A stretch of DNA of 46,920 nucleotides from an uncultured Bacteroidales bacterium (GTDB taxonomy: Bacteria; Bacteroidota; Bacteroidia; Bacteroidales; UBA3824). The DNA is taken from assembly GCA_905233995.1 (NCBI GenBank), contig CAJOGF010000002.1, positions 23,661 to 70,580 on the forward strand, given 5' to 3'. The position numbers and the translations under genes were made by a program. Below, in pieces: positions 3,695 through 46,920 of this stretch (its first letter is position 1; each line of letters begins with the position of its first letter). Under the pieces are notes generated by a model. It was not told the DNA's origin. It worked only from the letters and a program-made list of their open reading frames with translations, and ran no database searches.

Positions 3695-3712
3695 GCAGTT
3701 GCCCTTTACATT

Positions 3713-16200: not shown

Positions 16201-19200
16201 GTTCTCAACGTTAGTAGTTCTTGTTACAGAACATTTTGGATTATCCTTAACCACTACAGTCCAAGTAAGAATTGTAGAACCACGTCTTGCGCCTGAATAA
16301 TGGGTGCGATATGCAGTAGAGTTTTCAATTGAGAACTCTGAATATTCAGTACCCTTCTTAATCTGCCAATATCCAAGATACTTATCTGGATCGTATTCAC
16401 TTGCCTCAATTGTTCCGTCAGGACCGCAATCACCAAAGTAATCTGAAACATATACATCAGGAGCGATATTGTTAATAACAATCTGAGAAGAACCTTGACA
16501 GTTTTCTTTTGATGTTACAATCCATTCGATGATATTTTCACCCTTACTCAAGTTGGTAATTTGTGTCTGCCAATTGGTCTGCTGACCTTCAGCAAACTGA
16601 CCTGTACCTTTAACAACGTGCCAATAACCAGTGTAGTTATCAAGAGCCGGATCTTTAGAAGCGGTAAGGTTGTATTCATAACCGCACCAATCATCAACCA
16701 AAGTATTCGGCAACTGAGCACTCGGAACTAAGTAATCAATTGTTACAGGAGCAGAATTGCTACAACGTCCGTTTGTTACTGTCCAAGTAAATGCGTTCTT
16801 ACCTTTGTTAAGGTTCTCTACAGAAGAATTGTAGAGAGTATTATCAACAATGGTAACATCATTAGAACCAACCCAAGTACCTGTTTCACCGGCTTTGAGT
16901 ATACCATTCAACGAAGCCCTATCGTCACAAGTTGTACCGTCATAAGCCTCAGCAACAACCCTACTACTGATTACAGTTGCGTATGCCTCGTGAGGACATT
17001 CATTCTTAGTATATGTCCATCTCAAGTTAACAACTGCACCCGCTGCAATATGAAGTGTAGCATTCGGATTTGTACTTTCTTCGTCAGCAATCCAACCTTC
17101 ACCAGATTCAACAGTCCAGAAGCCCCCTCCTACTGCATAACTTGTAGCCTGAAGTACTTGGTAATCGTTACACAACTTCTCGTTTGCATCAATGTTGTAG
17201 TTTCCGTAGTAGTATTTATCGTCGCCACCATCTTCAACTTTCCACTGACGACCACCTGCGCTAAGGTTGAAGCCATTGTTAACAATTGTTACAGCCTTAG
17301 AATCTTCGCACTTAACGCCGCCTCTATCAAGTTTAACAGTCCAAATGTACTTCTCGTTGAAGTCAGGTTGAACGCCGTTAACCTCTGTAACAGATGCAGT
17401 AGAGTTCTTAATTACGCCTTGGTTAGACGGAGTTGCAGGAGACCAGAAACATTCAGCCTCGCTAAGTGCTGTTGCTTCGAGCATTACATTATCACCTGTA
17501 CAAGTATTAATGATGTCGTTTGCAACCTGTGCCTCAACATGGTTAGACCTTACACTTACAGTCTTAACATCGGTACAATTTTCGTTAACAAGACTTGTTA
17601 CTGTCCATTCTAACGTTGTGAATGCGTCAACTGCAAGATTTGTCAACTTAATCTTAGAACTTTCAGTCTCGCCCTCTATTTCGCCTGCACCGTCAATCTT
17701 TCTCCACTGACCTTTGCAACCACTCGGAAGTTGTGCTTGGAGTGTGTATTCAAGATCGCAAGTGTAGATTTGATTGTTTGCATCAACGTTAGCAATGTTG
17801 GTTTCAACCTTGTTGCTTACGATTGTTACCTCGTCGGTTGCTGAACATTCACCCTTAGAAACTCTCCAAGTGAATATGTTAGAACCTTGACTCAATTTCA
17901 AACCGCTGATTGTAACAGCCTCTGCTGTGCTTGCCATATCAACGTCATTAGAATACGGAGAACCTTTTATCCATTCTCCCATTGCTCCAGAACCTTCAAG
18001 GTTGTTAGCAGTGATAAGTTCTTTATCGTTGCAAGAGTAAATAATCTTCTTACCTTCATCGTTCTTAGCAACATTGATTTCGGCTTTAACAGTGTTGTTT
18101 ACAATTGCAACTTTCTCAGATTTAACACACTGACCTTCGCTTACTGTCCAAGTGAACATTGTAGAGCCAGCAGGCAAGTTGCTAACTTTTGCGTTTGCAA
18201 GTGATGGATTGTTATCTTCAAATACAACTTGGTCGGAAGCCGCACTCCAAACACCATGACCGCAATAAGCCTCAAGTGTAGCAGGGTCGGTTGCGTTAAG
18301 TTGAATTGTACCATCGCAACTTTGAGGTATAGCACCTATATGTGCCAAAACTTGATTGTTTGTAATCTCGATTTTGTCAGTAGTTTCACATTTACCTTTT
18401 CTTACAGTGAAAGTAAAGAGGTGAGTACCTTTGTCGAGTTTTGTTACCGTTACAACATTTGTAGAAGCATTCGGTGAGAATTCTGCGTTGCCTGACAAAG
18501 ACCATTCACATTCTTCATCACCATTGATGTTAACTGCTGCAAGAGTAATAGTACCATCGCAAGCCTCTCTTTCTGCTGTCAATCTGTCTGTAGTGATAAG
18601 AGCCTGTGTAGGATCGTTGTTAACGATAATTACACTTGTCTTATTATCACAAGACTTTTCGTTACCAGTCTTAGTTACAGTCCAAATGATTTCGTTTTCA
18701 CCTCTTAACAAGCCATTTACGGTTGTCATAGAAGATTCTTCAGCAGTGAATGTAACATCCTTATTGTTGCTTGACCACTTACCGGTGAAGCCTTCAGGAA
18801 GTGTACCTGTTAAATCTTCACGAGTATTACCGCAAATAGTTTCAGTACCAGTAGGAACTTTAGGTATTGACGGACTATACTTGAAGTTATTAACAACAGC
18901 CTCAACTTCATCGTAACATGTAGTCATTACATCATCATATATTCTCCATACGAGGGTTGAAGAAGCATTTTCGTCAACACCGTAGTAGATAGCGTTTTCA
19001 AGTGCGCTTGAAGATTGTTTGTTATCTTCAGAACCAAAGTATCCTGAGTAAGAATCAGCCTTCTTGTACCAATAGCCAACCATTCTTTCGTTATCTTTAT
19101 TAGCATGGAGTTCAAAATTACCATCACAAGATTCGTACTCTGTCTTAGCCTTCGGAAGCGGTTTGCGGTTGTAAAGTGTAATGACATCTTCAGCAGTACA

Positions 19201-22200
19201 CTTACTATCGCCTTCGCCACGAGTTTCAGTCCATTTCAATGTAACATTTTCAGAGAATGAAACTGCAATCTTGTTAGAAGTGCTATTGTCATTAGCAAAT
19301 GTTACTCCGCCAGTTGTTGCTTCCCACTGACCAGTACCTACTAATGTCTGAGCCTCAACAACTATATTGTCTTGACCGCAAACGTTACGATACTTAGCAA
19401 CATTGTCGGCTTCAAGGTCAGCGTCAACAGTGAATGTCTTATCTGAAATTGTTACAACTGAAGAAAGTTCGCACTTACCGTCTTGAGAAGTTACTGTCCA
19501 AGTAAAGTCGTAATCTCCACCAGTAAGACCAGTTACTTTAGTTGTATAAATGTCAGGACTTTCAATATTGTATTCACCGTTGCCCTTAGTCATAGTCCAC
19601 TTACCAGTAGCGTTGTAGTTAAGGTCGCTTGCGTCAGCAGTCAAAACTACTTCGTGTTCGCAAACTGTGCGTGATTGACCCGCATTAGTTGTAACAGCCG
19701 AATTAACGAATGTTACAGGGCTTGAAGTCTGAACACCACAATTTCCACCTTGAACATTCCAATAGAAACTTACAGAACCGTGAGGCAAGCCTTTAACTGT
19801 AATTGTTTCAGTGCTTACATTTTCAGGCATTTCTACCTCGTCAGGACGATTGCAAGTCCACCAACCGGTTGCACCAGATTCTTTGATGCTCTTAGCCTCA
19901 AGGTTGATTACCTCGTTGTCATCACAAATAGTTCTGTCCTCTGTAAATACCTCTGCTTTGTAAGAGGTGTTAGTAATCTTAACACTTACAGGGATTGAAC
20001 ATTCAGCCTCCTGATCGGGACGTTTCTTCTTGTAAACTGTCCAAGTGAAGGTAGCCGTTGTGTTCGGGATAAGGTTGCTAACCAATACTTGTTCATTAGA
20101 TTTTTCAGCATCGTAGCCGTTAGTACCCCAAGTCAAACCTTGAACATCTGAAGTCCATTCACCTCTTTCGTTATTATCAGTATTTGCAGCCTTAGCCGAA
20201 AGTGTGATGTAATCCTCACAAATAGTCTTGCTTTCGTTGTAGATTACAGGTTGATCAGGCAAGTTGTTTGTAATAACGATAGCCTTAGAATCCTCGCACG
20301 CATTAGAAGTTCTCTTAACGTGCCATACAAACTTAGTACCCTCGTTCTTCAAACCTTTAACAGTTACATTCGGGTCTTCAACTGCATTATCGAATTTCTC
20401 TGATACGAACTCAACACCGCTGACAACATCCCAATAGCCAGTTGCATCTGCCGGCTTAGTAGCGTTCATTGTGTATTCGTCGGTACACTCGGTGTAATCG
20501 TCAACACCAGCAGTAAATTCGTTATCGTTGAACATATCGTTAACAACAGTTACAAAATCTTGTTTTGTAGGACAGTTAACAACCTCGTTTCCTAACTCGT
20601 CTTTTGCAGCGTAGTAAACATTCCAAGAGAATTTGTACTCGCCTTTTCTTGTAAGACCATTAACCTTAGTTTCATAATTGGTAGAGTTTTGGATTACGCT
20701 CTGATCGATTGTGTATCCACTTGGAGCCTCCTCCAATTTCCAGTAACCTTTGGCGTTACCGCTAACGTTCTGAGCCTCAAGTTTAGTAGTCATAAGACCA
20801 TCAGGTGAACAGATTGTAATCTTATCAGTTACCACTTTAGCAGTTACATTCTGATTAGCAACGTTGATAACTCTTTGGTCTTGACAAATACCTTTTCTTA
20901 CAGTCCAAGTAAAGATGTCGCCAGTTGACGGAATTTCAACAGCCGTTACAGCGAATGCAGATGTTGTATTCATTGTTTCTTCACCAACCATGAACTTAGA
21001 GCCATTTTGTGAAGTCCAAACGCCAGTTGAACCAGGGAACTTATCGTAACTATTAACAACTTGCAAGTTAATCTTGTTGTCCTCGCAACTGTAGAGGTTG
21101 AGTTCAGGAATATCTCCTGCTTCAACATAGTTGTTAGTAATTGTGATAGAAGCCTCGCTTTGACATTCACCCTTAGTTAATGTCCAGTAGAAGATATTGT
21201 TGTTAAGATCAAGATTTGTATACTTAACTTCAGTAGTATTTTCGTCAGTATAACCTTCTGCGAGAGTTGCACCGCCGAGTTTTCTCCACTTACCAGTTAC
21301 TTTGCCTTGATCGAATGTTTCTTCATCGTACTTATCTGTTGTAAGAACAATTTCGTTGTTACAAGTTTCAGGTTCAGCCTTGATTCTTGCTGCAACAGGA
21401 TTGTTGTTAACAACAGTCAAAGTTGCAGGATATTCACAATGTTGACCATTTGCAACGCCATCAGAAGTGATTGTCCAAGTGATTGTATTAGGACCTCTTT
21501 CCAATGTAGCAGTTACAGAGGTTGTCTGACCATCTATTGCAGTGAACTCACCGTTCTTATCTGACGACCATACGCCGGTATAACCAGTTGCAGGCATTGT
21601 ACCTTCAAGGTCGATTTCAGTCTTACATGTTGTAGTTACGCCAGTCTTGCTTTCAACTACAGGATGGAAGTTGTAGTTTGTAACCGTAGCCTCTACAACA
21701 GTAGCACATTCAGTAAACTCGTTATCAGAAACAGTCCACAAGAGTTTAACTGTGCTATTGTCGTCCATTCCGTAGAAACGAGCGTTGATGTTTGTGGTTG
21801 AAACTTCGTCGTTATCGAAGTAACCGTTAACAGTTTCAACAGCCTTAGACCAAACACCTGTTGTACCATCTACAGCAGCAGTTGCAGTAAGTTGAGGAAT
21901 TTCGCCGTTGCAAGTATAGTATTCTTGGCTTGCATTAGCAACCGGTTTGCGGTTGTAAAGCGTTACTGAAGCCTCAGCACTACATTCTGCATAATCTTCG
22001 TGCCATACAAGTGTTACACCGTCCTTTGTAATACCCGAAGTAACATTAGTTATATAGTTAGTAGGATTATCAACTGTTACGCCGTTAGGAACAATCCAAT
22101 AACCTGTTGCATCAGTGTGCGGCAATGCAGCCGTCAAAGGTTTGTCAGTCGGAGTTGTTTCTCCGCAAACAAAACGTTGTCTTGCATACGGGATTTCATT

Positions 22201-40200: not shown

Positions 40201-41766
40201 ATATTCGTCAGCATGTTCGAGGTCGTTACAAACGGTTTCTCCGTCAGCACCGGCTGAAACACTGAAACCATAGTTGTAAATGACAACAGTTGAAGACGAA
40301 GCACATTCTGTTACGCCAGATACTCCAGCAACTTCTCTTACATGATTTGTAACTGTCCATTTAACTTTTGCACTCATGCCGTTAGAAAGACCGTCGTAAG
40401 TAGCATTTGCGTTAGTAACCTCGCCGCTGAAATTGCCAGTGTAAGAGTCGTCGTCTTTTTCCCAAATACCTGTTAAACCGCCGTTTTCAGCAGTGTAATC
40501 AAGATTGTTTGAAGATGTAAGTTCAACTTCTTCGTTGCAATAAGGTTGCTGAGAAGAAACAACTGCAACGGCAGGAACTTGAATATTCTTTAAGTTGTAA
40601 ACGTCAACTAATTCGCAGCCCGCTGCATTAGTTAATATCCAATGAAGTTCAACACCCGAAGTAGGAATGTTTTGAATGTGTGCATTGAAAGCAGTTACAT
40701 CTGCAACATAATCTGTAGCCTCTGTTTTGTCATCAGAGAGATACCATTTGCCAGTTACACCTGCAACATAAGATGCTGCAATGTTGGTTTCTTCGCCGCA
40801 GACATTGATTGTTTCGTTTTTAGCAACTTGATTAATTTTCTTAACTGTCAAAGTAACAGTCTTTGTATGAGGACAAGTACCTTTGTCGTCAAAAGCGGCT
40901 GTCCATCTGAAGACGTATTTGCCCTCGTAAGTAAGACCAGAAACTGTTGTATTGTTTGCAGTTGAATTGAAGTTAGCACCAACAACTTCGTCAGAAGAAT
41001 TGATATGCTCTTTTACAAAGTCGATAACTTCCCATTTACCAACTGCTGCACCACCGTTGTAACCACTGATAGAGGTTGCAGTAAGTTCGTATTGAGGACC
41101 GCAGATTTCTTTGCTTTCGTCCTCGTCCTGAGGCATAGCGCAGTTTCTAACGCTAAGTGTCTGCTCTTTGGCAGGACAATCACCCTTAGAAACACTCCAA
41201 ACAAATCTTGCACCCGTTTTAGGAATGTTGATTGCAGTTACTTCAAAAGCATTGTCCGCAGCCTCAAGGTTATCAACTGTATTACCATTGTAAACAAACT
41301 GAACACCTTCGGTTGTTGTTGACCATACTCCAAATGAATTTTCATAGTCGTTAGTATTGTCGAAAGCGGTAAGTTTCAAAGTACCGTCGCAAGTTGCATC
41401 TGGTTGATTTTCTGAAATCATCGCTTCAACATAGTTGTTTGTAATTGTGATTTGAGCCGGCTTAGCGCACTTGTTGTCAAGTGTCCAAGTAAACTTGTTA
41501 GCATCATCGTATGCAAGTCCATATGCTGTAACGCTGAACTCTTTAGAAGAGTTTTCGCCAGTTTCTTTATCACCAAATTTAACATTATTATTTTCGATTG
41601 TCCAAGTACCAGTTACGCCGTGTTCAGGCTCAACAGCAACAAGTTTTATTGAACCATCGCAACTTACAAGGTTTGAATTGTCAATTTGAGCGTCAGCAAT
41701 TTTAAGACTCTTAATGATAAGAGGTTCTGAAACTGCAACGCAAGACGGCATTGTCGTTGTCGCCAT
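10246..41766 (-). CDS. Giant T9SS-secreted repeat surface protein/adhesin, C-terminal ~10,500 codons (downstream part of a frame-broken gene)
   Basis: The ORF is uninterrupted from 42099 down to 10246. The repeat-domain signal in this frame begins only at about 41750. ATG 41764-41766 is the first in-frame ATG that overlaps the upstream ORF by less than 60 nt. The product ends in 4 PKD-like domains and a type-B T9SS sorting domain. Confidence 0.85.
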   Translation of the reverse strand: MATTTMPSCVAVSEPLIIKSLKIADAQIDNSNLVSCDGSIKLVAVEPEHGVTGTWTIENNNVKFGDKETGENSSKEFSVTAYGLAYDDANKFTWTLDNKCAKPAQITITNNYVEAMISENQPDATCDGTLKLTAFDNTNDYENSFGVWSTTTEGVQFVYNGNTVDNLEAADNAFEVTAINIPKTGARFVWSVSKGDCPAKEQTLSVRNCAMPQDEDESKEICGPQYELTATSISGYNGGAAVGKWEVIDFVKEHINSSDEVVGANFNSTANNTTVSGLTYEGKYVFRWTAAFDDKGTCPHTKTVTLTVKKINQVAKNETINVCGEETNIAASYVAGVTGKWYLSDDKTEATDYVADVTAFNAHIQNIPTSGVELHWILTNAAGCELVDVYNLKNIQVPAVAVVSSQQPYCNEEVELTSSNNLDYTAENGGLTGIWEKDDDSYTGNFSGEVTNANATYDGLSNGMSAKVKWTVTNHVREVAGVSGVTECASSSTVVIYNYGFSVSAGADGETVCNDLEHADEYTLKAGELKDNQTGYWTSTTTVVYQGEKSNSAATVLVKGLSNKEPNKFIWTVTNEYGCTATDDVTIINNTPDDAVINNKPAEGYSLCENKYSLSAQAVANDNNAHWENVSGVKWYVNNEEKTYEEISTATSVEARNLTPNTKTKFTWVVSKGSCQRQDFVEIMNSAYDPKILTDNNQTVCTSTFKLEAEDPANVYGDKVTGYWSVNDNNITLPATSTNAVMIVELPYGTTTFNWNLTDGKETNSCGVKTTSINVTNKMVTSKPGDNDYTCTKEYTLDANTLPQEEGISGKWSLDMTSAGLNLNDVTIKNDKNNHTLVSGLTSGQYIFNWTVINKYGDGENDKCESTNPVTITSERFEVLADVLAVDENGEYTGKRDICGSDITITASGNAQNSDNFEWSVSPDYVTYTAEGLNLSLKGIVSTAEITFTETRGKCPATSKVVLTNRQPSATIGTTEYWTCDGSATLSGQKEESGQKGYWVKTSSNGEFADTDETTLRAIAAKVTLPSNSTATFKWVLALENDNNCKDEQVVTVKNNKVEGLTITETNKAQEECSNTRTLSAPTIPSGFTGSWSCVFDDVVFSTEANANQTVVSNLHKGANEIVWTLRSNDGKDCDENVVRATIYNNAVEERLAVNLEECLSPEDELRVDVPAADKGNNETAEWRPNGLTVVEKQDSYTTFKGFSLDENKLTWRIQAGSCYTDVPVTIVNNYVKAELGENAKLESCDGTLEGLVAKDVTATYGGTSKGWWTTDGVATLGSETGDTKGSDNENQVNVYNIPASGAKLVWNVTKGNKCSDTKEVTILNYYLPVSVDEKYINQTACDGTKTLRAADISSYSGAKGQWTVSKTPQAHSGEVVFANDGTTAVTEVSNLNAIGAYYFTWTAWREDNNRVKHCENNVENVIVNNINLMVKADNVNDKGKVANCGAEYTLNATKPGTDETGKWTASNGKDIFSNSTLYNAKVSGIPAEGVTLTWTITKDDCSASSYFEIFDTKEYAQAVASSPVCDGKVTLTQNNDLTKDNLTGQWSIVNGTGKFYDINGNELANVVEVADMNGNTSVKFEGIPAGKTATLRWTLKNSTVDNCDDYIDVEVHNEAFTFSAGADDETNCSDTYTLGADAAPQGCQGTWSPSSFTYSDIHDPKATVSGLKNGENELTWTVVKGDCSYQRSVTITNNSIDEAIILTEDNQVVCEDNFQLKAKEVTNGTGYWTGYGVEWSSNEGNGYDVCSTVATVRVSNLPKNQTTSFTWTITNPNGGKPACTDSKTITVNNKYYDAYIVTPVPKENEKDAMIEGCETVYNIAANDAFTDYGVEGHWEAVTPVNGKLSTEIDNTSYTMTVTDIKATAIFRWVVSNDACPEPYKTKSATVTITNNQVAANAGKDGITCGDSYQMQAVNPQSGKGHWEIVDAPGAVIADDQKDNPNAVITGLSNNGLYTFSWVVENEGGKCPSHDEVTISSNGFEVQADINAEPVMNDENEIVGYKHNICGNTAKIEATPLQPGAEGFWTVTPNTVSMVGSTGNLVELSGIEPATPATLTWSVNYNGCNDVTNSVTLYNRKPIVGSDAEHFYCGLSKTQKENGDVEDGIRLNATKADGYNTKWEIVSGSVEFKDDNSEVYNPIVYNVPATSSAVLKWVVSDKNLTTCNAEQTFTVTNNRFEPVINTQNTNVCADNATVSGSIPAKGFEGKWSSFSATFDDETASTTTVEGMTIGENIIRWTVLNTDENGASSALCADNYVELTITNLKPGVPVIVTENNTQVCSKDDFNNGINKLVAGENAEGVKGEWSTTGHAIISDKNELRTSVENLDKDDNTFIWTIYREGYKESCSEQTQVVIINNEVTAGADLQDAYTCDGSYLLHADYNNDVNTGTTTGEWTALPNTDIVFANDATNQNEVRVSGIKTTAPVIFTWRVKKGQCTSDPVSMTVTNYEVKPEINREKTSQFACSADDIELFAKEVSAFGPNTFGEWTLKEGGYPSTRISDPATIVIANDGTQNNTTVSGLVEPGDYTFVWNVWREVDGFDPEKGYDKGICHNSDEITITNAMLVADADVELPSNTARSECGDQVQLRGNSYQGATGTWKILTENSPVKFSPEDDIHNPTATITGIPNEGVTLRWTLDNHVRNENGEISLKRCEDSDNITIYNDLTVPHATANATNVCDGKVTLTTTNTLNGNMKGVWSTTATGHFENGEQECTATPETFQTVKFEGMTPGATATFYWNVINEANGCMAKEPFAITVNNNDFVVPAAAERPTACENSLALSATIPCENINDPELTEHYWRWNQSSIYFNGSESTNQTATVYGLSNSDDNILNWHVTYKGCTKEWEVTIHNYSVEEAKITSHQGSVEVCDQDFSISANSTTVGVGRWEISPSVTIKTGDINEPNITVTNMPANSNVTFRWYIERFKDNNNPKDDELLCRTQSESVVVKNLNYTAKISTKKQLVCNSEVELNANDVKSLYGDAIEGWWTSSNDVEWNGENSNSSYNVTVKKLPFGETEFVWHVKGTQCPNEVTDKVVIVNQPVKAAISESAQKNTCGTSATLKAVYSNPELKGYWTCESDADFDNNADANYVERSNFETKVNNLNPQKSEYRFRWHIYSDGYTTADNTKVPGCEDYADQLITMNSLNGVIADMAKGVKNATENVCGPEGVITAHTPILEGWWTTLPTGNEGMITSDTKNNQMTFNLGDKMSMVFVWHEKYEDCEAEDQVTVNNIAPKVNAGPEVYYTCDGSRTLEAEDPGENNGVWSKVVTTDSGDFDGSANINNAVYTGIADDSSVRLKWTVTAKDDESCSNSVERTIVNQRFRPEVIADNTVCGTELQVIGTTPQFEYNGKWSCLTSNNVSFEDDGTNANTKVLNLQPGENIVRWTVINKNGVVKCNENYVDYTITNLQPSVATIIDGKRETCGEKLELKATPLKGDEKGKWTANKAFTAENNVIDASNIVLTKLENDETKFVWTIYRDGHEECTSSATTTVVNNTVDMGTGISSLNYTCDGSVELIASNNALDNTGVTRGEWTPAENTSLVIENSDNYHAKVSNLPLKATEKFIWTVYKGNCSDNVEIAVTNYQVTPTVYPVDPICKSDFGKATLKADPLSPYGEVGSEVFGEWTVKTSPVEVVINNSDNNVATVENMTKNGEYIFQWMVYRKVAGISGEDGYTDGGICHDSRVVTVNNNTVSADADTRFTENAIHVCGTEFKMLANTEAEATGTWTLTDGSSAEAYIAASESTSPTATVKNIPASGVTLRWTMTRNDGTCSDYDEITLYNEKTPAVVTVDEQTCDGTVTLTTSNEVDGDYDGVWSTVSKGTFSTDPAVIVSTASGKTAVFQGMAYNTEATFYWSLKHNVKVTDGVNTYDYCESDPIRKVVKNIDFDFTAGVNATTDNCRSSYELKATKPEAATGEWTAETGAEFVDKTDPTTTVNKLSNKEVNRLTWTVTLEGCAPKSKIVEITNLGVDAPDVYTTSKTTCKETETLSAVAAEGGHWEITPKTVEYVDCVSTDANITVTNLPVNSSASFNWVIERLDNNGNVVCRRSTADEDINKTVVITNMNYKSVISTTDKTICNNYVEGLSANDVEKEYGVKGWWTASSDRVTFGDNSDATAKTSSDHKVNAYNLPYGEVTFYWHVKGGNCDEAVPATVVINNEQITTDANAEVTTCDDKAELEAELPTSSWNAKGYWTCTSFGGNENTLTYNNSTSNETVVSGLQRGDYVFEWTLESPARQNDPAKKAGCAAIKEITVHANDYDITADNSSDVKVENGKKIHEICGSEFMITATESRANGHWTGIENYVEDYATASSNNVLSFNLGNNRSATFTWSEDYRGCKKSDQITIINTEPEATAPSKQYTCSGTIELKSDAPASSYNGSWEVAEGTWPGTLEGNVFTFSKENAKETNPALRQAKLYWVVTNDKGCANRKVVTVFNNKFTPEITVDEPNGAKVCGTEAKVIGSIPTEGFTGRWTPQRLGVGFENEESSSTVVNGLQYINNKIQWTVTNIDGDEKCTENSVTKEVQNVNPGTPEIAATMKTESCDGTATLEAKKSSLTNVYGWWTDNRGVLNKGVYNATSETVVIDNSSALLESGDNVFTWTIARQGEENWCSESTNITITNNTINIGEPIPATASTCLENGSITLEASNHKALNGETATGEWTSKSGNIEIGENSTNYRVEISGITPNTSEEFVWTVKKGSCEVPQNITVSNNFVKAELVNSAVYTCGDQAMLEATPISTYGNNVHGEWKVETTKVADVTFTNSTNYKTIVNGLTENGQYEFSWNVYREIDGDEVCPQSVIVTVTRDNFTVNAAANYTNGVEGQTVKDGKVIGVCGSTVTITPTKPEGSTGVWYTADGQVYSEESKITVDNLTELGTKLIWQVSRGTAPDVCTASDEIMIFNDVVTPAVDVEPITCTGNITMRTTNDLNANLSGKWSTTFASGSFEDNTATHVSEVDGSIATYYNIPNGANVTFKWTLTHTVHNNACVTSKTFAVSNNKFSFTAGNDANATCEGTYTLQGTYPEGVTGATGYWTADQKVTYVDGEDESTNRNAKVSELNNTTPTTFTWTVTANNCTDSREVTIINNQVKEASITPLASDIVCGDYLDLNANDPEGKGMGQWIYPAQVEFTKGTSTDNIITVTNLAANQAQKFVWRISRPNGANNDCVSEAEVTVKNMKYDAKIAVPFAVKAKESKEIVICKDNIKLQANDVKTDYGVDGWWENVSVNEATFANDVTSHIMTVENLPYGRTTLRWHAWDAAHVCSESWAEIVVINESLETNAGADDWTCNGRYESLTATNPKSECHGVWNCTGGVDYENVTFDVSTNYITAVSGLKSGAYQFTWTVYSEHYKEDGAGNVLSGCKTSDEVLISADGFKVDADNTADDDTKKRAICGQEARLIASEYEGYWTVVPNDGTVTISSPSYYDTNVDLGVNTSATFTWHATYKECHAEDNITLNNIQPTIVDAGKEVYYTCEENGSVTLNAKQTADGTHGVWSKKSPTLKGSFNGNANESGIDEYNAVYTGVPANSSVELVWTVTSKFVDVDNVEKDCPAYDYATVVNNYYKPSIDVATEVCGLDTTITGYMPSEGFTGTWTCETSTDVKFEVVNDSKTKVQGLEFGQNVIRWTVLNNIGDKKCTNNFVEVTIDNIHPGYPEILTNSGVSPVETCDGSKELKAKEPSVDGVEGYWYTNRDGQFKDGVSASTLVTLENMSVDDNLLTWRIFRSGHDKCYVESTLTVVNNEVKLGTQPQDAYTCGGSYILAAENEKINNGNSASGLWTMKTNGQYATISNDPTNNKIEIVDIAKNNSEIFTWTVSKGGCHDAFDVTIYNHQVLPEAATKNGNTTICENYVDLVASSITSYGSSAKGYWTLESYPDTRIDDSKTITFDSQSETPRVEGLSQNGQYAFAWNVYRETADLDRVCDTAAIVNITNAMFTVDADVNVDNENGKSASACGGAYQLHASTPANGVVEQYWQTVPENVEGITFDNSNEAVTMVRGVTNNGVTLRWNVFNGTCWESDEIKVYNDQFIALAKPDANFICDGDKGITMTTTNDLDDMNTVGIWSTTAESGSFGDDSNNRIISVEGNKSVTYRFLKPGTTATFYWTIRHTANGQVCENATSFTVTNREFSVYAGADNHTESIDGLNCSDEYVMKADALSSEVRIDENGNEIGWSGVWSVDTKAQFEDSTDPKTKVSLLSNKVPNNFTWTVTDPYGCTQTANVQIKNNAVDEAIIEEGDAISICSMPYPLNAREVSEGSGHWENLSGTISPAKTDAHIEISGLTPNSDAVFAWIVERDNGVGKCTSRAEIKVTNSDYEAEILTKVPDGEQSILTCDNTLKTVDGVAYKLLAADSKERYGVPGHWETTNPVTFTNEGSNSANEISVEGLPYGPTTFTWVLDGSCPFDATKHQASITVNNEKVSANAGDDVYWCKSNYDGLTATDPSFLGSGKWELISGNNMTNVTIESTGVYHTAINGMTSGDYKFRWTVTSEHGCQISDEVTIHHNGFNVEYADMYGSAVKDENGNEIPYARQRFVCGETTPTDKPLTAALPHTDATGYWIVPNGVTVDNPTNYITNVTSGITKDGVTLVWHEDYAECSAEASVTLYNRKPVANASQEYYTCNGEIPQLTATAAVDGTTGVWSKAVETVNGYFDNDEVSTTNINARFYGMDDNSTVKLLWTVSDNEFTECATVVEATVTNYNFHPVVESKTGVTTTCKTEIDLEGTMPATGYTGVWSSDKNGEFTAIDGQTTSVTATLERGPNTITWTITSDGVANGQHCEYPATLTVVNNNPVAARIKAEPETCNNEIVLTTDKYDEETFDQGKVTGKWRKLGGATLAEGYTDENTTEVKYTNLDLNNNIFYWTLTKGECQSEASITITNNYVEAGDIPELNLYSCEDNKINLQVVNSYDKFPGSTGVWTSQNGSKFMVGEETMNTTSAFAVTAVEIPSTGDIFTWTVRKGICQDQRVINVANQNVTAKVVTDKITICSPDGLMTTKLEAQNVSGNAKGYWKLEEAPSGYTIDQSVIQNSTNYETKVNGLTRKGEYKFSWNVYYAAKDELGNEVVNCPTKQDFVTVVNDMFNDNEFTAGVDDYTECTDEYTMNATKPADATGYWDVVSGVEFVSEKFDNAVEDPNVTVKGLKNEGTKFVWHVKRTSNACEDSKAIVITNNLPDQPVIYNESKTICEDYITLSAKAANTDNNERGEWTSDVQGLTWGTNGYDAEKSNEQVLVSNLIPNTTATFTWTVYKKKRPDQEAECSIPVSVKITNTSYKAEVFTEDRTICDDNEVINLEAKSIKESGATGWWTCNRPDEVEMPENVSTETITVKGLPHGSVSFYWNVQGGNCGVQTSSPVTFVNSAVTTNAGQSRTVCEHEVVLTADASDLNYNATGKWTMTKGNGEYNIESPDIYTTKVTGLTGGDYDFTWTVTSQDGKCELSSVVTISDKTFTVDADLEADNVAKYRNVCGQDNIVVEAQTLVGTGQWEATTGGVTFANDNSTSNKIAVSFSENVTLKWTETRGEGDSKCTAEDVITLYNRKPLPKAKTEYESCDGNFELHANKDNERMVGYWYKKADSYSGYFGSEDNKQSSSALENAIYYGVDENASSTLVWRIYDDVMTTCYDEVEAVVNNFKYSPSIPKVPTGTETICGNTREDLTGTLPEGFTGKWSSNNKDVTFTAEESSMTTVNGLLRGENEIIWTVTKTGNEKSCDNKTSVIIVNNDPTQALITTDRLTAEREACDGTITLAAVNINGDEECEWSLSGNAEFSPNASTNVVTVTKLDKGTHLFTFTVRKGKCETTDKIEITNNQVLAHIGAIPQSCDGTIQLNATDPATLEAYCGHGVWSAASDQVVFEDNNPSLANAKVSNLPAGSTMFTWTVSEGQCVKSEKVAIVNNTVKAEINVAKNDEGKKIIYSCNDKELITANNLEGSGAMGEWIKGSPYSNDVDMASTAEAVTISGLKLSQGSNIFTWRVSKGECSATDEVTIVSNKVETNIANVDANNQIYTCDLEYTLQAQLPSGCKGQWRKIDGAGEIEGETESSKIKLTNLAVDAFTTLEWTVTSLVNENCTDVKTVSVRSNHVEAQVANDIINTCTGDNVMLEATALSEAECFWSPATPSNQGVIKNSTASVTEVNGVQPDFNEKYIWTVKLDRGGVKCEDSKAVTIVNNGFNLSAGGRQWKVEDGGDDKYYYGNYNIDANEKLCNDYQVLQATSYAVGGGFWTVESGEGWIADEESTNPNATLHIAAGAVVNLRWTYTKNECPHEAYATVISSRVVAEAYDGTTCDDRASLNGILKAGETGTWVGSNDVTIVDNTLYNSSVENLNKGKNAFTWTVTNGRCSNSAPVTIDYLVPSAQLPNTLVDDWCGYEYNLTASKDPALDNYTGYWHVVKGTGQFAEGQQTNWQTQITNLSKGENIIEWIVTSKENCQGSSQIVINNIAPDVYVSDYFGDCGPDGTIEASEYDPDKYLGYWQIKKGTEYSEFSIENSTAYRTHYSGARRGSTILTWTVVVKDNPKCSVTRTTNVENKSILVSAAVPEDYCSDEVAVSASALNEKDYGYWKSANQNSTIKFENSESNLTKVSNLQYGTNTIVWHVVAENGCEGDAYVDIVHKSYPGFTAGEDQTTCSTKAPLAATSPETYEDESNMPNVISYWEKVSGPETVGFVNSTSFGTEVTGLALGRSVLRWTVDNGTCVMTDEIEIVNNGVEANAGGNSLITLCEDSYQFFAVMPEVYDSVAWKIGYGSGQFDVQRTHNSNVEPYNGDESLNPYTEKCNSATISNLMHGTSTFEWHVYYNGCDTHDDVRIKSVAPSKAEAMASTPVCETDFHLSANDPKIYTEKYWIDENDNSKVIIDNSTSPYTEVHNLSIGENRFKWVIVNEEDGRRCPSEAEVVLTNQSITVSAGQDYVTCDFDAKLKAADPGIYKGFWEPVNSQGTVEIVNSTAYETDVKGLQVGGNTFRWTKYNDQCRVSDEVTITVNKATVANAGEDFTSCTSYTTLMANTPDKDEIGQWFVITGSGIVLESTNFKTNVESLSAGKNLIEWRILRGGDDINDPNVCFSSDTIVVTSRNITMSVTSSAEEYCSDEGEVYGYVNIDDYTSRWEPVGGNAKFLTSTENNSKVVNLQEGRNTLRWTVTSVYDGTKCESYRDVIVENNTAPKAIVPETRTSCDTFVDVLGNVPPQGTYGEWSIADGVGVFENSTAYSTRVSGLSADDANYAVWTIHKGSCTSSDTIMITVNKMITNVSGDDGTNTLEICGTESPISAAPAGEGARGWWETNAQGITIENSTSENARVTGVTTGAHTLVWHVKKTDESDCHASAKLIVVNNLYKATATLATANPICDGYATLIGNVPSGGSKGYWTGPETVEFSNKETPVTTMFPGVTGPNIAYWHIKKGKCEAVASVNVLNYSVDVELGDEITACDVDEVKTLAAPNPPVGGYGYWENPNGSVEIEDTNSPVTKVTNIQQGANVVVWHVYSPEVENDKGELTRCHAQASLVINNNHFETNAGEDFEVCDTITELRAMYQGPKAVGYWIGGKFSNSTSNRTFVSGLAPSSTNVFRWTVEMNNCVAYDEVTVRNRQAEIYIPSGDKPVCTPYTNLEAHQSEGVGHWEVMNGGGTIPMSTSQVAMVYNLNHGDNLIRWVVESGDVIRCRTFKDVIVTNNTINITAGNDQQICDTFATLAGQPLEKNQVGLWTWGAGSEVVPNVASGDVPRCVDNTLYNTKVTGLYYNDDGEGYANAFTWHVQDTVTRCEAQAMVKIICYHFQVDADISTITNVHETETNSIEITAKTMPTYTGVWRTVEGSGIASPSTKATTNVTKLSPGKNKLEWTATLVDDSPSGIRTKPLCSASDYVEIDFKAFDVEAGEDISICEDTAKLNAQKIEKAVCWWSSGHNGCRFDNSTDPKTIVRGLTRGPNKLYWNVTKNGFTTKDSVIIYNYAFSVDAGKDQHLCVDYTELKATAPYGNSLINDENLTITVSGYWDTQDGGVHFYQPNNRETKIDSIHAMTNVIVWHSSVTVSNLYTKERERLTCYNQDTVEVTYYVAPKPDFKIVPRTAGGCSPFTAQFANTTINTYPEDEVFYRWNFGNIIGYETQDHDSIREETFYNDAYYDSTLTVYLTTGLRIPNDVCYSTDSSEIIIYSVPVANVDLSSSLYKQPNMKVEMYADSVPGPFTRYTWNFGDGSGDVWDDNTMFRSTEVHEYATYGDYTIVLDVKNKHCASSDTAFVTILPAAPTRTVMPASYKGCDPYLHELIEGVRFADSVRWEIYYSNDSTALQAELLVPDGQSGTYLFNKVGRYLLYEYAYGPGADAEVYMRTDTVFVNPTPEVKFAIHPDTVRLPNVPLFTGNESTQGQGYRYLWDFGDGATSNEMEPVHYYSESGDYFVNLTVYSDQNCSAQGKEVPVRVEPEGMLRFPNAFVPDPSGPCGGIQTNRFNNYVFLPYPRQGVKAGTYILEIFNRYGEKIYESNDPDIGWDGYYRGELCKQDVYVFKCRCTFENGKLFKQIGNVTLLR
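10249..10554 (-). other. T9SS type-B C-terminal sorting domain (gliding-motility-associated CTD, CHU_C/TIGR04131-like)
   Basis: The last 102 aa read MLRFPNAFVPDP...YILEIFNRYGEKIYESNDPDIGWDGYYRGELCKQDVYVFKCRCTFENGKLFKQIGNVTLLR. This fits the family hallmarks (I/F)PNAF.P, IFNR.G..(V/I), WDG and G.V.L.R at the extreme C-terminus. Confidence 0.85.
10555..11649 (-). other. Four tandem PKD-like domains (11356-11649, 11095-11355, 10816-11094, 10555-10815)
   Basis: Domain 1 has YRWNFGN, domain 2 has YTWNFGDGSG...HEYATYGDYTIVLDV, and domain 4 has YLWDFGDGATS...HYYSESGDYFVNLTV. Domain 3 is the same length but lacks the W.FGDG motif. Confidence 0.75.
11650..17811 (-). repeat. Tail array of 23 divergent ~90-aa two-Cys domains with no higher-order period
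   Basis: 23 successive domain ends of the form L..G.N...W.V....C were counted, from ...TLEWTVTSLVNENC through ...VIVWHSSVTVSNLYTKERERLTC. Many carry an (E/D/V)NS(T/E)....T.V..L motif. Confidence 0.75.
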
Positions 41767-44700
41767 ATTGAAGATTTTTAGCCGAAACAGTTTGTTCGGA
41801 AGAAGTCTTTTGATTATCATCACCAAAAGTAACACTTGTTGCAGTAGAACGCCATGTACCAACAAAGATTGTTGGGTTAGGATTGTTACCGCTAAGCAAT
41901 GCTTGGTCTTCGCAAATACCAGTCTCGTCAGCAGTTGTTTTGGCAATAGCCTCTGCATAACGGTTGAGAATGGTAACATGAGCATCAGCATGACAACCCG
42001 GCATAGCGTCAGAAGTAATTCTCCAAGTAAGTCTTGCATCTTTGTTAGGCTCAAGCCCCTTGATTGTAGCAGTTGCGTCATTATCAGCAGAAGAAACAAA
42101 TACTAACTGCTCGTTGCCACTATCATTAATCCACTCACCCGTTGCACCGTTAAGAGTAGATGATGTAATTGTAACTTCTTGATCTTTAGAAGCACAAACT
42201 TCTTTTTCAGTATCGCTAACTTGAGGAGCAACGTTCTTAACGTCAACCGAAGCAGTTGCAGTACAACTATTTCTTTCAACCGTCCAAGTCAAAGATGCCA
42301 TTGTATTAGAACCCTCGAACGCAAAACCTGAATTACCTTTGGTTTTGTCAGCAACTTTAATAATACTTTCATCGTATGTCCAAAGACCTATTGCACCGTC
42401 AGCCTCCAAAGAACCAGTTGAACCACAAACATTACGTTTACCAACTTTGCCGTCCTTACCAGTCGGGTCTGCAAAAGTTGTAAAGGTATTGTTGATGAAA
42501 CTTACATCTTTAGAAGTTTGACATGTAGGATTTTCTGTATTAGTAAGAGTCCAAGTGAAAGTATATCTATCATCTTGAACTCGTTTAATGCCACTAACAA
42601 CAAGTTCTTTGTTGGTTGCATCAGTAATATCACCAATTGCCAAACCAGCGATTTCGCCACCTTGTGGAACATCTTTCAACGCCCACTGACCAGTCCAACC
42701 TGTCTGAATGTCAGAAGCGGTAAGAATGGTTTCGTCCTTACAAATGATATTGTTGGAAGTTTTGGAATCCTTAACAGTAATAGTAGGCTCTGAAGTAAGC
42801 ATTTGATTCTTAATGCTTACGTACGCTGTTTTATGATTTGTAGCATTTCCGTTATCATCGGTTTCTCCGCAATGTGAATTTTCGTCAGATGATGTTACAA
42901 CCCATTTAAACTTATAGTTTCCGTTAGTAAGATTTCCAACCGTAGTACGGAAATTATTTGCGTTAGCAAAAGTAGGCTCTTCTGCATCAGCAGGTTTGCT
43001 TTCTACCGACCATTTACCAGTTGCACCATTGTATTGAGCAGGATCCACTGCTGAAAGTTCAAATTCATCATCACAGATAACTTGACCATTAGGTGTATTG
43101 ATTTTAGCCTCAAAATAATCTACGTTGAAAGTTTTTGATACTGAAATAGGACAAGTTGTCTTGCTTGGATGACCTTCGTTGTTTGCAGTAACAGTCCAAG
43201 TTACGGTATGCTCTCCATAAGTCATACCGCTAATTGTATTAGTTTTAGCAGTAGAATTACTCATAGAAACACCAGAAGTTTGGTCAATTGTCCATTCACC
43301 TTTTGCAGTAGACGGAGTATAGTTGTCAGCCATAAACGTATAGGCTGTCTCACAAATACTACCAATTGTACCCTCCTCAATAATAGGAGCAGTAATCATA
43401 ACACTCTTAGGCATGTTGTTGACAATCTCAATTTGAGCATCATCAACACAACCACCCGGAGAAGTTACAGTCCAAGTAAATACAGTAGATTTTGTATTGT
43501 CAAGGTTAGTAACTTTAGCATTTTTGTTGGTCATATCTTCTGCCGAAATAACAGCCGAAGCAGTATTAGGATAAGACCAAACACCAGTATATTCAACACC
43601 TTTAACAGCAGACGGTAAGTCAGCGGTCATGATGTAAGAATCAGAACAGTCGGTAACAACTTTATCAGCACCAGCATTTGCCTCGAAACCTTCGTTGTCG
43701 ATTTCAAGGTAATCTTCGTCCATACACTCTTTGTAACCACTTGCAGTAGTAGCATCTGTTACAGACATAATCTTATTGTAAAGAGTATATGTTATCTTAG
43801 CAGTTTTTTGCATTCCAACACCAAAAAGTTCTGTGTTTGGACCTGTTGAAGCTGAAAGTGTTCCGTCAACAATTGACCAATTTGCATACGAAGTTTCATT
43901 ATCACCTGTTCCAGCAAGACGAATTTTTTGTGTTTCTGAACACAATGTAACATCGTCAGTTTTGATGATAGAAGCCTTAATCTTATGATTGGTGATATAC
44001 AAATCATCAGTCATTTCACAAGCCGAACCATTAAACTTCTTACCACTCTGAACGTGCCATACAAGATGAGTTTCAGAAAGTGTTAAACCGCTAACTTTAG
44101 CATTAGCATTGTCGGTTGTGGTTAAGTCTTCTGCACCGAAATTGCCCGAACCTGAAACTGTCCACCAAGCCTTTTCGTATTCAGTAGAAGTATAAGGATT
44201 AAGATTATAATAATCGTAACAATCAGCAATTGTTTTAACTGGAATTTCAGCATCAAAACCTTTATCTGCGTTAACCTTAGTGTTGAGGACTTTAACACGG
44301 ATTTGTGCTGAACTTTCACATTTGGTATTAACAGTTGTGCTACCTGTTATAGTATTATTATCACCCTTTACAACATTCCAAGAGAAAATGTAAGTACCAG
44401 AAGCAGTAAGATTAGAGAATGTAATCTCGTTTGCAGCACCATTTGCAAGAACCGAAGAAATATTTTTAACGTCAATTCCAGCAGGTGCTTTTACTATTTT
44501 CCAAGTACCTATTGCATTATTGTTTTGGGTAATGTCGTTTGCACGGATAGTAATTTGATCGCCGCAAAGCGGATATTCATAGTCAGGAGTGAAAATTGCT
44601 TTGTTTTCGTCTGACTGTGTTGATTGTCCGTCAACAACAACAATTTGAGCATCAACTTGATTGTTGTAAAGTTTTATAGTTTGCTTGTTGGTACATTTCA

Positions 44701-46920
44701 AATCGCCTTCGCCCTTAGAAACATTCCAAATATACTCTGTACCGTCCTTAGAAGGCTTAACGGTAATAGCAGGACTTGTTAAGTCTTCTGACAAAATAGT
44801 AGTATTTGTTGACCAATTGTGTTTAACATTATCGCCCCAAGATTCTTTCGGGTCAGGAACAGAAATTACATGTTCACCACAAACGTATTGTTCGTAATCC
44901 TTGCCTACTCCAACATAGTTGTAAGTCAAAACAATAGGGTCAGATGTCTTAGGACATTTTGACGAAATTGCAACATTCCAATATACATTGTTTTCACCTT
45001 GGTTGAAACCTTTGGCGTAAACAACTGGTTCAGAATTATTTTCTTCACCCTCACAAGCCTCGTCAAGATAGAATTTAACACCCTTAGTGTCAGAAGTCCA
45101 ATAACCATAAACACCGTTAGAACCTGTAACAGGAGTAGCGTTCAACTTAACAATTTCATCGCAAAGAACGCCTGAAGTTGTGGTTGGAAGCGGAGTTCCC
45201 GGATCAACGTTGTCAATAGTTACGGTTTTAGATACTTTACACTCTTGACCTTTTTCATCGGTTGGAGTAATAGTCCAAGTAAGAACATTTTCACGCGGTT
45301 CAAGACCTTTAACTATTGCTGCAAAATTAGACGGATTTTCTGTTACGCCGTCAGCATCATAGAATTTAACATTTGTACTTGTAGAAGACCATTTACCAGT
45401 ATAACCATTAGGCAAAACGGCTCCAAGTTGTGCTGTTTTATCACAAACTTCTTGGTCAACACCCGCATTAATAGCACTGTAACCATAATTGTAAACCATT
45501 ACAGTGGTTGAATTTTGACAAGCGTCTGCTTTGTTTTTGTCGCTAATAACAACCCATTTCAATTCTACCTGCGAATTGTCGCCCATACCGCTGAATGTAG
45601 TAGCAGCATTGGTTTCATCTGCAAGGAGAATACCTGAAGCAGGTTTTTCCCAATGACCTTGTGCCGGTTCGGTAGGTGTAGAAGCAGACAACTGACCTTC
45701 ACCATTACAAGTTACAACTTGAGGAACTGCTTGAGCCTTAACGCTGTTATCGTTGATAATAACATCATCTTCGGCAGTACAGCCGTTTTTGTGAACTCTC
45801 CAAGTAAGATTCAAAGTCTTGTCGATACCAGAAACAGTTGCATTGTATTGAGAACTATTTGCGGAGAACTGAACATTACCTTCAGCACCTCTAATAATCC
45901 AAACTGCATAATCATTTTCACCAAGTTCACCCGGATAATCAGCACTAAGAGTGGTCTCGGTTGAACAGATGTCCATAATGTTAGCCTCACCCTCTGCGTT
46001 AAGAGTATAAGCGTCAACTGTGAAAGTATTGTTGTTAACAACAAAATCTTTGTAAGAAGGCTCACATTCATGACCTGCTTGACCGTTGGTAACTGTCCAA
46101 CGGAAAATATATACGCCCGGTTCATTTAAACCAGAAGTAAGTTCAACTTCGTTTTCGTTGTTGTCGGCTTTAGCGGTCTTTGTGTCAAGAACAGCATTCA
46201 AGTCTGCCATATTAGCATTGTTGTTAGGAGTTTGAATACAAGACCACTTACCAGTAGCATAAGGATATTGTTTCAACGACTGACCCTTCAAAGTAACTCT
46301 TACGTTACCAGAAGCAGGGTTGCAGATTGAAACTTTGTCATCTCCTTGAAGCGAAGCAATAAGTTTGTTGTTGTAAACGGTCATATAGTCGGTGCTTTCG
46401 CAACCAACAAATTGTTTTTCACCGTTTTTATCAACGATTTCGCGGTTACTCTTAACCTGCCATGTAAAACGAACACCGCTTGCCAAAACAGGTATTTCAG
46501 TAACCTTAATGTCTTTTGTATATGCTTGATTTATATTATCACCAGCAGCAATTGTAACATCGTTGTATACAACTGCGCTGCTTGCTGTCCAATAACCATC
46601 GTAATCAACAGTATTTGGCAAATCAGGTGTCGGAAGGTCGTATGTACCATCACAAGTGTAATCCTCTTCCTTAGAAAGTTCGGTTGAAGCACCATTGTAG
46701 TTAACATAAACAACATCTTCGCTGGTACAAGTTACATTATCACCTTTGTGATCCTCTGTTGTACGAGTAATTGTCCAAGAATAACGATTTTCACCATCAC
46801 TCAAAGCGGTAACGGTGGTTTGGTGTTCGTTTTTAGAACCAAATGCACCAGAACCAAATCCTGAAACAACATCCCATGTTCCACTTTCACCAATGTTAGT
46901 GTTAGCGGCTTGTGCTGTCA
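17812..46920 (-). repeat. Array of a 12-domain (~1,125-aa, ~3.38-kb) super-repeat; 9 A-type domain copies in the window, continuing beyond the right edge
   Basis: The Trp codon of the A-type domain motif (Y.F.W.V) recurs at 44378, 40903, 37561, 34177, 30793, 27418, 24043, 20623 and 17866. The spacings are 3475, 3342, 3384, 3384, 3375, 3375, 3420 and 2757 nt. Confidence 0.85.
41711..46920 (-). CDS. Giant repeat surface protein, upstream part (5' end outside the window)
   Basis: The ORF track begins at TTG 46804, but the same frame stays open to the window edge. Positions 46805-46920 translate to TAQAANTNIGESGTWDVVSGFGSGAFGSKNEHQTTVTA, which continues the domain pattern. It has the same domain family and the same domain order as the downstream ORF. 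Confidence 0.85.
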   Translation of the reverse strand, partial: TAQAANTNIGESGTWDVVSGFGSGAFGSKNEHQTTVTALSDGENRYSWTITRTTEDHKGDNVTCTSEDVVYVNYNGASTELSKEEDYTCDGTYDLPTPDLPNTVDYDGYWTASSAVVYNDVTIAAGDNINQAYTKDIKVTEIPVLASGVRFTWQVKSNREIVDKNGEKQFVGCESTDYMTVYNNKLIASLQGDDKVSICNPASGNVRVTLKGQSLKQYPYATGKWSCIQTPNNNANMADLNAVLDTKTAKADNNENEVELTSGLNEPGVYIFRWTVTNGQAGHECEPSYKDFVVNNNTFTVDAYTLNAEGEANIMDICSTETTLSADYPGELGENDYAVWIIRGAEGNVQFSANSSQYNATVSGIDKTLNLTWRVHKNGCTAEDDVIINDNSVKAQAVPQVVTCNGEGQLSASTPTEPAQGHWEKPASGILLADETNAATTFSGMGDNSQVELKWVVISDKNKADACQNSTTVMVYNYGYSAINAGVDQEVCDKTAQLGAVLPNGYTGKWSSTSTNVKFYDADGVTENPSNFAAIVKGLEPRENVLTWTITPTDEKGQECKVSKTVTIDNVDPGTPLPTTTSGVLCDEIVKLNATPVTGSNGVYGYWTSDTKGVKFYLDEACEGEENNSEPVVYAKGFNQGENNVYWNVAISSKCPKTSDPIVLTYNYVGVGKDYEQYVCGEHVISVPDPKESWGDNVKHNWSTNTTILSEDLTSPAITVKPSKDGTEYIWNVSKGEGDLKCTNKQTIKLYNNQVDAQIVVVDGQSTQSDENKAIFTPDYEYPLCGDQITIRANDITQNNNAIGTWKIVKAPAGIDVKNISSVLANGAANEITFSNLTASGTYIFSWNVVKGDNNTITGSTTVNTKCESSAQIRVKVLNTKVNADKGFDAEIPVKTIADCYDYYNLNPYTSTEYEKAWWTVSGSGNFGAEDLTTTDNANAKVSGLTLSETHLVWHVQSGKKFNGSACEMTDDLYITNHKIKASIIKTDDVTLCSETQKIRLAGTGDNETSYANWSIVDGTLSASTGPNTELFGVGMQKTAKITYTLYNKIMSVTDATTASGYKECMDEDYLEIDNEGFEANAGADKVVTDCSDSYIMTADLPSAVKGVEYTGVWSYPNTASAVISAEDMTNKNAKVTNLDNTKSTVFTWTVTSPGGCVDDAQIEIVNNMPKSVMITAPIIEEGTIGSICETAYTFMADNYTPSTAKGEWTIDQTSGVSMSNSTAKTNTISGMTYGEHTVTWTVTANNEGHPSKTTCPISVSKTFNVDYFEAKINTPNGQVICDDEFELSAVDPAQYNGATGKWSVESKPADAEEPTFANANNFRTTVGNLTNGNYKFKWVVTSSDENSHCGETDDNGNATNHKTAYVSIKNQMLTSEPTITVKDSKTSNNIICKDETILTASDIQTGWTGQWALKDVPQGGEIAGLAIGDITDATNKELVVSGIKRVQDDRYTFTWTLTNTENPTCQTSKDVSFINNTFTTFADPTGKDGKVGKRNVCGSTGSLEADGAIGLWTYDESIIKVADKTKGNSGFAFEGSNTMASLTWTVERNSCTATASVDVKNVAPQVSDTEKEVCASKDQEVTITSSTLNGATGEWINDSGNEQLVFVSSADNDATATIKGLEPNKDARLTWRITSDAMPGCHADAHVTILNRYAEAIAKTTADETGICEDQALLSGNNPNPTIFVGTWRSTATSVTFGDDNQKTSSEQTVSAKNLQYGDNDNAVLRCSFRTSYH

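Follow-up and report, generated by a model that had tools for sequence, protein, structure and literature searches.

The window analyzed here is a 46,920-nt stretch of contig CAJOGF010000002.1 (positions 23,661 to 70,580 of the forward strand; assembly GCA_905233995.1) from an uncultured Bacteroidales bacterium, and its minus strand carries a giant gene that runs off the window end. The encoded protein consists largely of tandem domains that recur in a cycle of 12 types, and this recurrence is real and far beyond chance. The hierarchy is also deeper than was described in an earlier reading of the window (hereafter the sequence-only reading, since it used the letters and their translations), with a 6-domain sub-period inside the 12-domain unit. 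We consider it probable that the gene encodes a very long surface fiber, likely exported by the type IX secretion system (T9SS) and built of domains homologous to the repeats of GhpA, and that the cycle is a record of past duplication whose period need not be selected.

A 12-domain cycle with a 6-domain sub-period

A hidden Markov model (HMM) of the repeat domain, iterated from one seed, tiles amino acids 1 to 11763 of the joined protein with 126 domains, as many as the sequence-only reading had estimated. The domain consensus is C17..L.A..G.W36..V.GL..F.W68.V..C78..V.I.N88, with W36 found in every one of the 126 domains. An AlphaFold 2 model of two consecutive domains, for which the alignment comprised 123 domain pairs from the window itself, is all-beta with a predicted local distance difference test (pLDDT) score of 93.4. 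When the repeat region was scanned against Pfam and NCBIfam, no family was returned for the domain, the sole exception being a K319L-like PKD match to the C-terminal segment at 41.4 bits, within which no single stretch was significant.

To type a domain, its scores against the core members of each type were averaged, with the domain itself left out. For 74 of the 75 domains at positions 19-93, the type assigned in this way equals the domain number k modulo 12 (binomial P ~1e-78). Mean Smith-Waterman scores between domains are 90, 79, 74, 70, and 66 at lags of 12, 24, 36, 48, and 60 domains, compared with a background of ~50, and together with the typing they bear out the fixed-order cycle of 12 types that had been claimed. 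The autocorrelation that had been anticipated at multiples of ~1125 aa is found in the offsets of self-BLAST matches, which peak at ~1125, ~2250, ~3380, ~4510, and ~5640 aa. Autocorrelation of identity at exact offsets is nearly flat, the register being blurred by indels, and the BLAST-offset and per-domain analyses were used instead.

Identity within a type is 33% (5th-95th percentile 25-44%), compared with 23.6% between types and 23% between neighbors, in agreement with the earlier judgment that domains at the same position in different units resemble each other more than they resemble the domains beside them. A neighbor-joining (NJ) tree of the domains resolves most types as pure clades, and clustering follows position, not unit, as the sequence-only reading had expected. 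Per-type consensus sequences reproduce the motifs it had listed, with its types A, B, C, F, H, and J corresponding to types 8, 9, 10, 1, 3, and 5, respectively. At the DNA level, similarity among units is almost nil and amounts to six short high-scoring segment pairs, all of them at whole-unit offsets.

The 6-domain sub-period is weaker than the 12-domain cycle. Types six apart share 26.7% identity versus 23.2% for other pairs (P = 4e-27), a signal that comes mostly from types 2/8, which reach 31.5%, and from types 5/11. Even lags score a little higher than odd lags, and domain lengths alternate between long and short according to type (about 101/89/104/86 ... 105/89/103/84 aa), with a standard deviation (SD) per type of 2.5-6.5 aa.

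The cycle is not equally regular throughout the array (Table 1). About eight units plus a half unit are recognizable, two of the eight being weak, in place of the nine or more iterations that had been counted. Domains 0-18 are only weakly in register, and domains 100-125 are aperiodic, since periodicity stops at domain 99 (window ~18577). All nine codons that had been given for a marker tryptophan of one type do encode W68, in domains 8, 20, 32, 44, 56, 68, 80, 92, and 102, although domain 102 is not recognizably of type 8. The spacings between them of 1158, 1114, 1128, 1128, 1125, 1125, and 1140 aa stand as reported, and a last spacing of 919 aa was absent from the earlier list. The statement that length is strictly conserved was too strong, as full units span 1102-1184 aa and one unit has 10 domains. 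Lag-10 matches are seen between domains 86 and 96, 88 and 98, and 89 and 99; since domains 94-99 are types 0-5, unit 84-93 must lack two types. The units most alike are the central units 3-6 (same-type identity 0.35-0.39) and the outer units are least alike, units 0 and 1 having a same-type identity to other units of 0.23-0.29, compared with ~0.22 in a shifted control.

Table 1. Features of the giant gene and its repeat array in the window
Feature	Positions	Strand	Basis
Giant gene, at least 12,223 aa	10246..46920	(-)	List of open reading frames (ORFs) and open-frame scan; stop codon 10246-10248; N-terminus past window end
Gap-free array of 126 tandem ~93-aa Ig/PKD-like domains, each with two conserved Cys and two conserved Trp	11629..46918	(-)	Iterated HMM tiling; column conservation
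Domains 0-18, most diverged units (0 and 1), weakly in 12-domain register	41398..46918	(-)	7/19 in register, P = 6e-4
Frame break in domain 17; ~10-11 residues including the conserved F.W.V strand missing	41714..41800	(-)	Three-frame translation; alignment of type-5 domains
Domains 19-83, super-repeat core: five full 12-domain units (1102-1156 aa) and the end of unit 1	23065..41397	(-)	Lag-12 peaks, typing, NJ clades
Domains 84-93, 10-domain unit: types 0-8, then 11	20230..23064	(-)	Types 9 and 10 missing; lag-10 matches
Domains 94-99, last recognizable half unit (types 0-5)	18577..20229	(-)	Typing; same half unit in L082 and L084
Domains 100-125, aperiodic tail of the same domain family	11629..18576	(-)	No consistent type or lag; orthologue counterpart also degenerate
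Two PKD domains, between array and C-terminal domain	10570..11328	(-)	Pfam PKD_4 2.2e-25, PKD 3.6e-18
Probable T9SS type-B C-terminal sorting domain	10252..10431	(-)	Both matches under curated thresholds

Homologues and the age of the array

A profile of domain pairs from the window, searched against PDB sequences, matches full-length GhpA with an E-value of 1.2e-171 and a score of 570 bits. The best two-domain stretches in GhpA score 44-87 bits and lie at residues 4676-5729, and the next matches of the profile after GhpA are KIAA0319-like PKD domains. A Foldseek search against the PDB also returned GhpA as the top match (9fly_A, E = 2.3e-5). A phmmer search of PDB sequences with one unit gave no match, so that at the sequence level GhpA was found by profile search only. 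These matches indicate that the repeats in the window are homologous to the GhpA repeats. We limit this claim to the repeats and do not extend it to orthology with GhpA, because the head module lies beyond the window, no anchor genes are found downstream, and the C-terminal domain is sub-threshold.

Grappling hook protein A, or GhpA, of Aureispira sp. CCB-QB1 (PDB 9flp/9fly) is a T9SS substrate of 5,898 aa with 52 Ig-like repeats that differ a little from one another, and ghpB and ghpC, which encode homologues of PorP and PorE, lie downstream of it (10.1101/2024.01.29.577165). Its repeats form seven parallel in-register strands that make up a hollow 240-nm stem, and the fibers are of uniform length (10.1101/2024.01.29.577165). 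Lateral packing of this kind is plausible for the window protein too, by analogy, since GhpA is its closest characterized relative. The two resemble each other as giant proteins with tens of Ig-like repeats and conserved cysteines, GhpA being T9SS cargo and the window protein putatively so. They differ in size, the window protein having at least 12,223 aa and 126 domains, and in the 12-domain cycle; they also differ in that the window has no counterpart of ghpB/ghpC downstream, and in their hosts, a marine predatory member of the Saprospiria in one case and a Bacteroidales bacterium in the other. Within GhpA itself (9flp_A), profile matches of near-equal score recur every 249 aa, with starts at 1790/2039/2288 and 3160/3409/3658 (residues ~1790-2396 and 3160-3771). 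This spacing suggests that the GhpA stem may have its own super-repeat of ~3 domains.

An exhaustive HMMER search with one unit as the query returned 541 proteins at E < 1e-3, many of them 4,000-7,000 aa long. A one-unit scan of GTDB representative genome contigs found no relative. The sequence-only reading had suggested looking for the same period in homologous giant genes, and this holds for orthologous contigs, which keep the cycle, but not for other members of the family, in which the unit has 2, 4, 5, 8, or 14 domains. According to the type-specific HMMs of the window, the 0-to-11 cycle occurs only in a few, mostly fragmentary metagenome proteins (P0001, P0008, P0025, P0033, P0046, P0144, P0100, and P0023). 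P0046 is 99% identical to the window protein, and its contig, L001, has 99% DNA identity to window 23693-30554.

More distant orthologues are informative as to the age of the arrangement. The 17-kb contig L084 is one unbroken frame. Aligned over 5,838 columns, it is collinear with window aa 4068-9736 and shares 53% identity, a value that drops to 32.5% in a register shifted by one unit. Its types run 7-11, then through three full 0-11 cycles, then 0-8, one ambiguous domain (typed 9), and 0-5, after which the array is degenerate. L082 aligns collinearly to window aa 6711-10170, its identity of 42-43% comparing with 27-39% in other registers, and its order of 0-8, 11, 0-5 is without types 9 and 10, as in the window. 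On L083, the C-terminal third has an orthologue of 36% identity. Since the orthologues match the window unit for unit, with identity in register above that in shifted registers, the amplification is older than those speciations. The architecture in its entirety, with both the 10-domain unit and the aperiodic tail, thus predates the divergence of the organisms that bear these orthologues. Beside the L083 orthologue, at 11579-13390, a BipA/TypA-like GTPase gene follows in place of the downstream genes of the window, which indicates that the locus is not syntenic at that distance.

The periods of other family members were taken from per-domain autocorrelation of those relatives with at least 30 domains. 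The commonest dominant period is 4 domains (among others in P0020, with z = 17, and in P0022, P0006, and P0004). Dominant periods of 8 (P0015, P0021), 14 (P0017), 5 (P0151), and 2 domains (P0085, P0073) are found as well, and in P0048 similarity is highest at lag 1. Super-repeats of varied multi-domain period are a general, apparently undescribed trait of the family; in the literature on super-repeats in bacterial adhesins and T9SS giants, we found no such description for T9SS cargo. Block size reflects lineage history and is not a family constant, and, given the other unit sizes that occur, 12 domains are unlikely to have a special role.

Probable duplication history, selection, and assembly

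The history that would best account for these patterns begins with a 6-domain block that doubled to give 12. The 12-domain block would then have been amplified in tandem about eight times, mostly mid-array, in an ancestor older than several present-day species. The copies would since have diverged to ~33% identity and lost their DNA similarity, which would have removed the substrates of unequal recombination and so frozen the number and order of domains. The near-constant length of 12 domains would follow from each domain being a folded unit of constrained size. Ancient en-bloc duplication had been proposed before, and it agrees with the position-wise clustering, the near absence of DNA similarity, and the unit-for-unit match of the orthologues.

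Domain repeats in general grow several domains at a time, preferentially mid-array, and unit size varies within a family, according to the mostly eukaryotic survey of Björklund, Ekman & Elofsson 2006 (PMC1553488). The array studied here has the same three features, namely autocorrelation peaks spaced by whole units, most recent copies in mid-array, and a unit size that is variable in the family, although a bacterial 12-domain unit repeated ~8 times stands at the large end of the range. Central units that are most alike, combined with periodicity that decays at both ends, are what stepwise tandem block duplication usually leaves behind (PMC1553488).

Several observations weigh against the interpretation of the protein as an exported fiber with a merely historical period. 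The C-terminal tail scores 23.7 bits against CHU_C, for which the cut-off is 27, and 27.3 bits against TIGR04131, for which it is 35. Among the ORFs downstream of the giant gene within the window there is no PorP/SprF-like or OmpA match, and the N-terminus, with any signal peptide and the functional head, lies beyond the window end. The gene contains a frame break, and its product may not be a single chain. Between the window and L084, zero domains have been gained or lost over 60 positions at 53% identity, and this frozen domain number could reflect selection on total length or type order besides the absence of recombination substrates. The type-specific motifs, moreover, are kept in all units.

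A further force may have acted alongside duplication. Selection against misfolding or aggregation of similar neighbors would favor block duplications that comprise several types, and we regard a contribution of this kind as possible, if somewhat doubtful; it would add to the duplication history and would not replace it. Neighbors are only 23% identical, no more so than any two different types, and most homologues likewise have multi-domain periods and not single-domain ones. Björklund et al. discuss this selection as a possible factor favoring multi-domain duplications (PMC1553488). The lag-1 maximum of P0048 points the other way, since near-identical neighbors are evidently tolerated in the family.

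The state of the reading frame bears on whether the architecture has any current function in this strain. On the minus strand, one frame is open at 10249-42102 (10,618 codons) and a second at 41714-46918 (1,735 codons), the latter running off the window end; the two meet near 41745-41760, and joining them gives the product of Table 1 with one frame break only. Because ~10-11 residues are lost exactly at the break, the lesion is a deletion of ~31 nt and not a 1-nt error. In L001 (sample ERZ1667815, 99% identical), 37 nt and 36 nt are absent at 4476/4477 and 6011/6012, which correspond to window 26042-26078 and 24471-24506. Each deletion junction there creates a TAA stop, the window is intact at both sites, and there is no obvious flanking direct repeat. 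An SNF2-family helicase in the window is also split, into ORFs at 6637-9054 and 9003-9497 (+) that lie in different frames with a 52-nt overlap, the first containing the SNF2 domain and the second Helicase_C, which makes it another gene of the window with an apparent frameshift. If the break in the giant gene were real, the gene might be a decaying pseudogene and its architecture a relic. The loss of codons for a core beta-strand, the split helicase, and the further deletions in L001 all speak for such decay. We nevertheless consider it unlikely, as the frame of ~36.6 kb, the whole gene in the window, is otherwise free of stops, the deletions in L001 are at other sites than the one in the window, which suits artefacts of scaffold joining that span a few tens of bases, and L084 is unbroken over its 17 kb. 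Found three times in two assemblies, deletions of 31-37 nt are more suggestive of defects in scaffold joining than of biology, recurrent real deletions being the alternative.

The sequence-only reading had suggested selection on the period itself, with the protein perhaps acting as a ruler, having periodic binding partners, or packing laterally, and had drawn a parallel to titin A-band super-repeats. For a ruler in the manner of titin or nebulin, the ~1,125-aa unit would correspond to some physical period, be it a periodic partner, a helical repeat, or a staggered lateral packing, and selection would keep that period. In titin and nebulin, the period matches the lattice of a partner, the thick or thin filament. 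The window protein resembles the titin A-band and nebulin in having distinguishable domain types in fixed order over many units and in showing the same autocorrelation signature, and it differs in that no partner is known, unit length is uncompensated, and relatives have other periods. For nebulin, the autocorrelation period is 7 (PMC1553488). A ruler would be consistent with a fixed type order that each unit retains in the orthologues of 53% and 42% identity, with the type-specific, alternating domain lengths and their SDs of 2.5-6.5 aa, and with the laterally packed, seven-stranded fibers of uniform length formed by the relative GhpA.

The lengths of the units argue against this idea. Selection on unit length would need compensating changes in domain length, but unit length has an SD of 19-28 aa versus 15-21 aa expected from independent per-type variances of domain length, and 71-92% of within-type shuffles have an equal or lower unit-length variance than that observed. 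No such compensation is seen. In addition, a 10-domain unit has been tolerated and is kept in orthologues, the period fades at both ends and leaves 26 domains aperiodic, the central units are those most alike, and the units have hardly any similarity left at the DNA level. Homologues make do with periods of 2, 4, 5, 8, or 14 domains, the parallel in-register packing of GhpA needs no super-repeat, and the window contains no candidate partner gene. A ruler is therefore improbable for this protein. The chances are similarly slim for a related idea, in which the 12-domain unit (~50 nm if extended) would be the structural period of a multi-stranded GhpA-like fiber, set by a supercoil turn or by a docking site for a partner or glycan. 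Were it so, the strictly conserved type order and domain number of the orthologues would reflect selection on that period, and the protein would parallel, in bacteria, the super-repeats of titin and nebulin.

That the periodic pattern stems from mis-assembly can be rejected with near certainty: giant repeat genes are often mis-assembled and the window has one probable join defect, but the units have no DNA similarity able to mislead an assembler, and the order is reproduced in three independent assemblies (L001, at 99% identity, L084, and L082).

Gene surroundings and relation to known T9SS fibers

Following the array, the C-terminal ~480 aa of the giant protein comprise two PKD domains and a T9SS-type-B-like tail. 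By eye, this tail resembles the type-B C-terminal motif. The rest of the window contains housekeeping genes, namely an RpoD-like sigma factor, a sulfatase, an acetyltransferase, and the SNF2 helicase. The genes downstream of the giant gene are an unassigned 215-aa ORF and then this helicase. The 215-aa ORF, directly downstream at 9483-10130 (-), has a weak HTH_18 match (E = 0.005) and is unlike PorP/SprF, a context that contrasts with the gene neighborhoods of GhpA and SprB. In a scan of genome contigs, the nearest RpoD is that of a Bacteroidales metagenome-assembled genome, Horse_feces108, at 95% protein identity; there is no synteny with this genome, and DNA similarity is limited to rpoD (75%).

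SprB of Flavobacterium johnsoniae is a gliding-motility adhesin of 6,497 aa that forms a repetitive surface filament and is exported by the T9SS via a type-B C-terminal domain. The window protein would be similar to it as a giant, repetitive surface filament of T9SS type with a probable type-B C-terminal domain. It differs from SprB in lacking both an SprB-repeat match in the scanned parts and an adjacent SprF/PorP-like gene. The SprB repeat (Pfam PF13573) gave no match in three scanned segments covering ~4,500 distinct residues, one unit being scanned even at E up to 10.

The O-glycosylation motif of Bacteroidota, D-[ST]-[AILVMT], is scarce in the giant protein as a whole, occurring 20 times compared with ~56 expected from composition, even though serine and threonine make up 19% of residues. 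GhpA, in contrast, has been reported to be glycosylated on each Ig-like domain.

Export of the giant protein would presumably proceed through the T9SS. At ~4 nm per domain, an extended fiber would be at least ~0.5 um long, compared with the 240-nm stem of GhpA, and the head beyond the window may have an adhesive or tethering role. The protein probably joins the GhpA/SprB class of T9SS Ig-repeat surface fibers as a new and very large member. As an outcome of a known evolutionary mechanism, its super-repeat is unusual in its size and its state of preservation.

The giant gene would add a member of more than 12,000 aa and 126 domains to the recently recognized GhpA-like class of T9SS surface fibers, in an uncultured gut-associated Bacteroidales lineage. 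As the domain has no Pfam or NCBIfam model, proteins of this kind are at present poorly annotated. This protein provides no evidence for a bacterial molecular ruler; its 60-domain order, frozen at 53% identity, appears to be a clean example of divergence stabilizing giant repeat genes.

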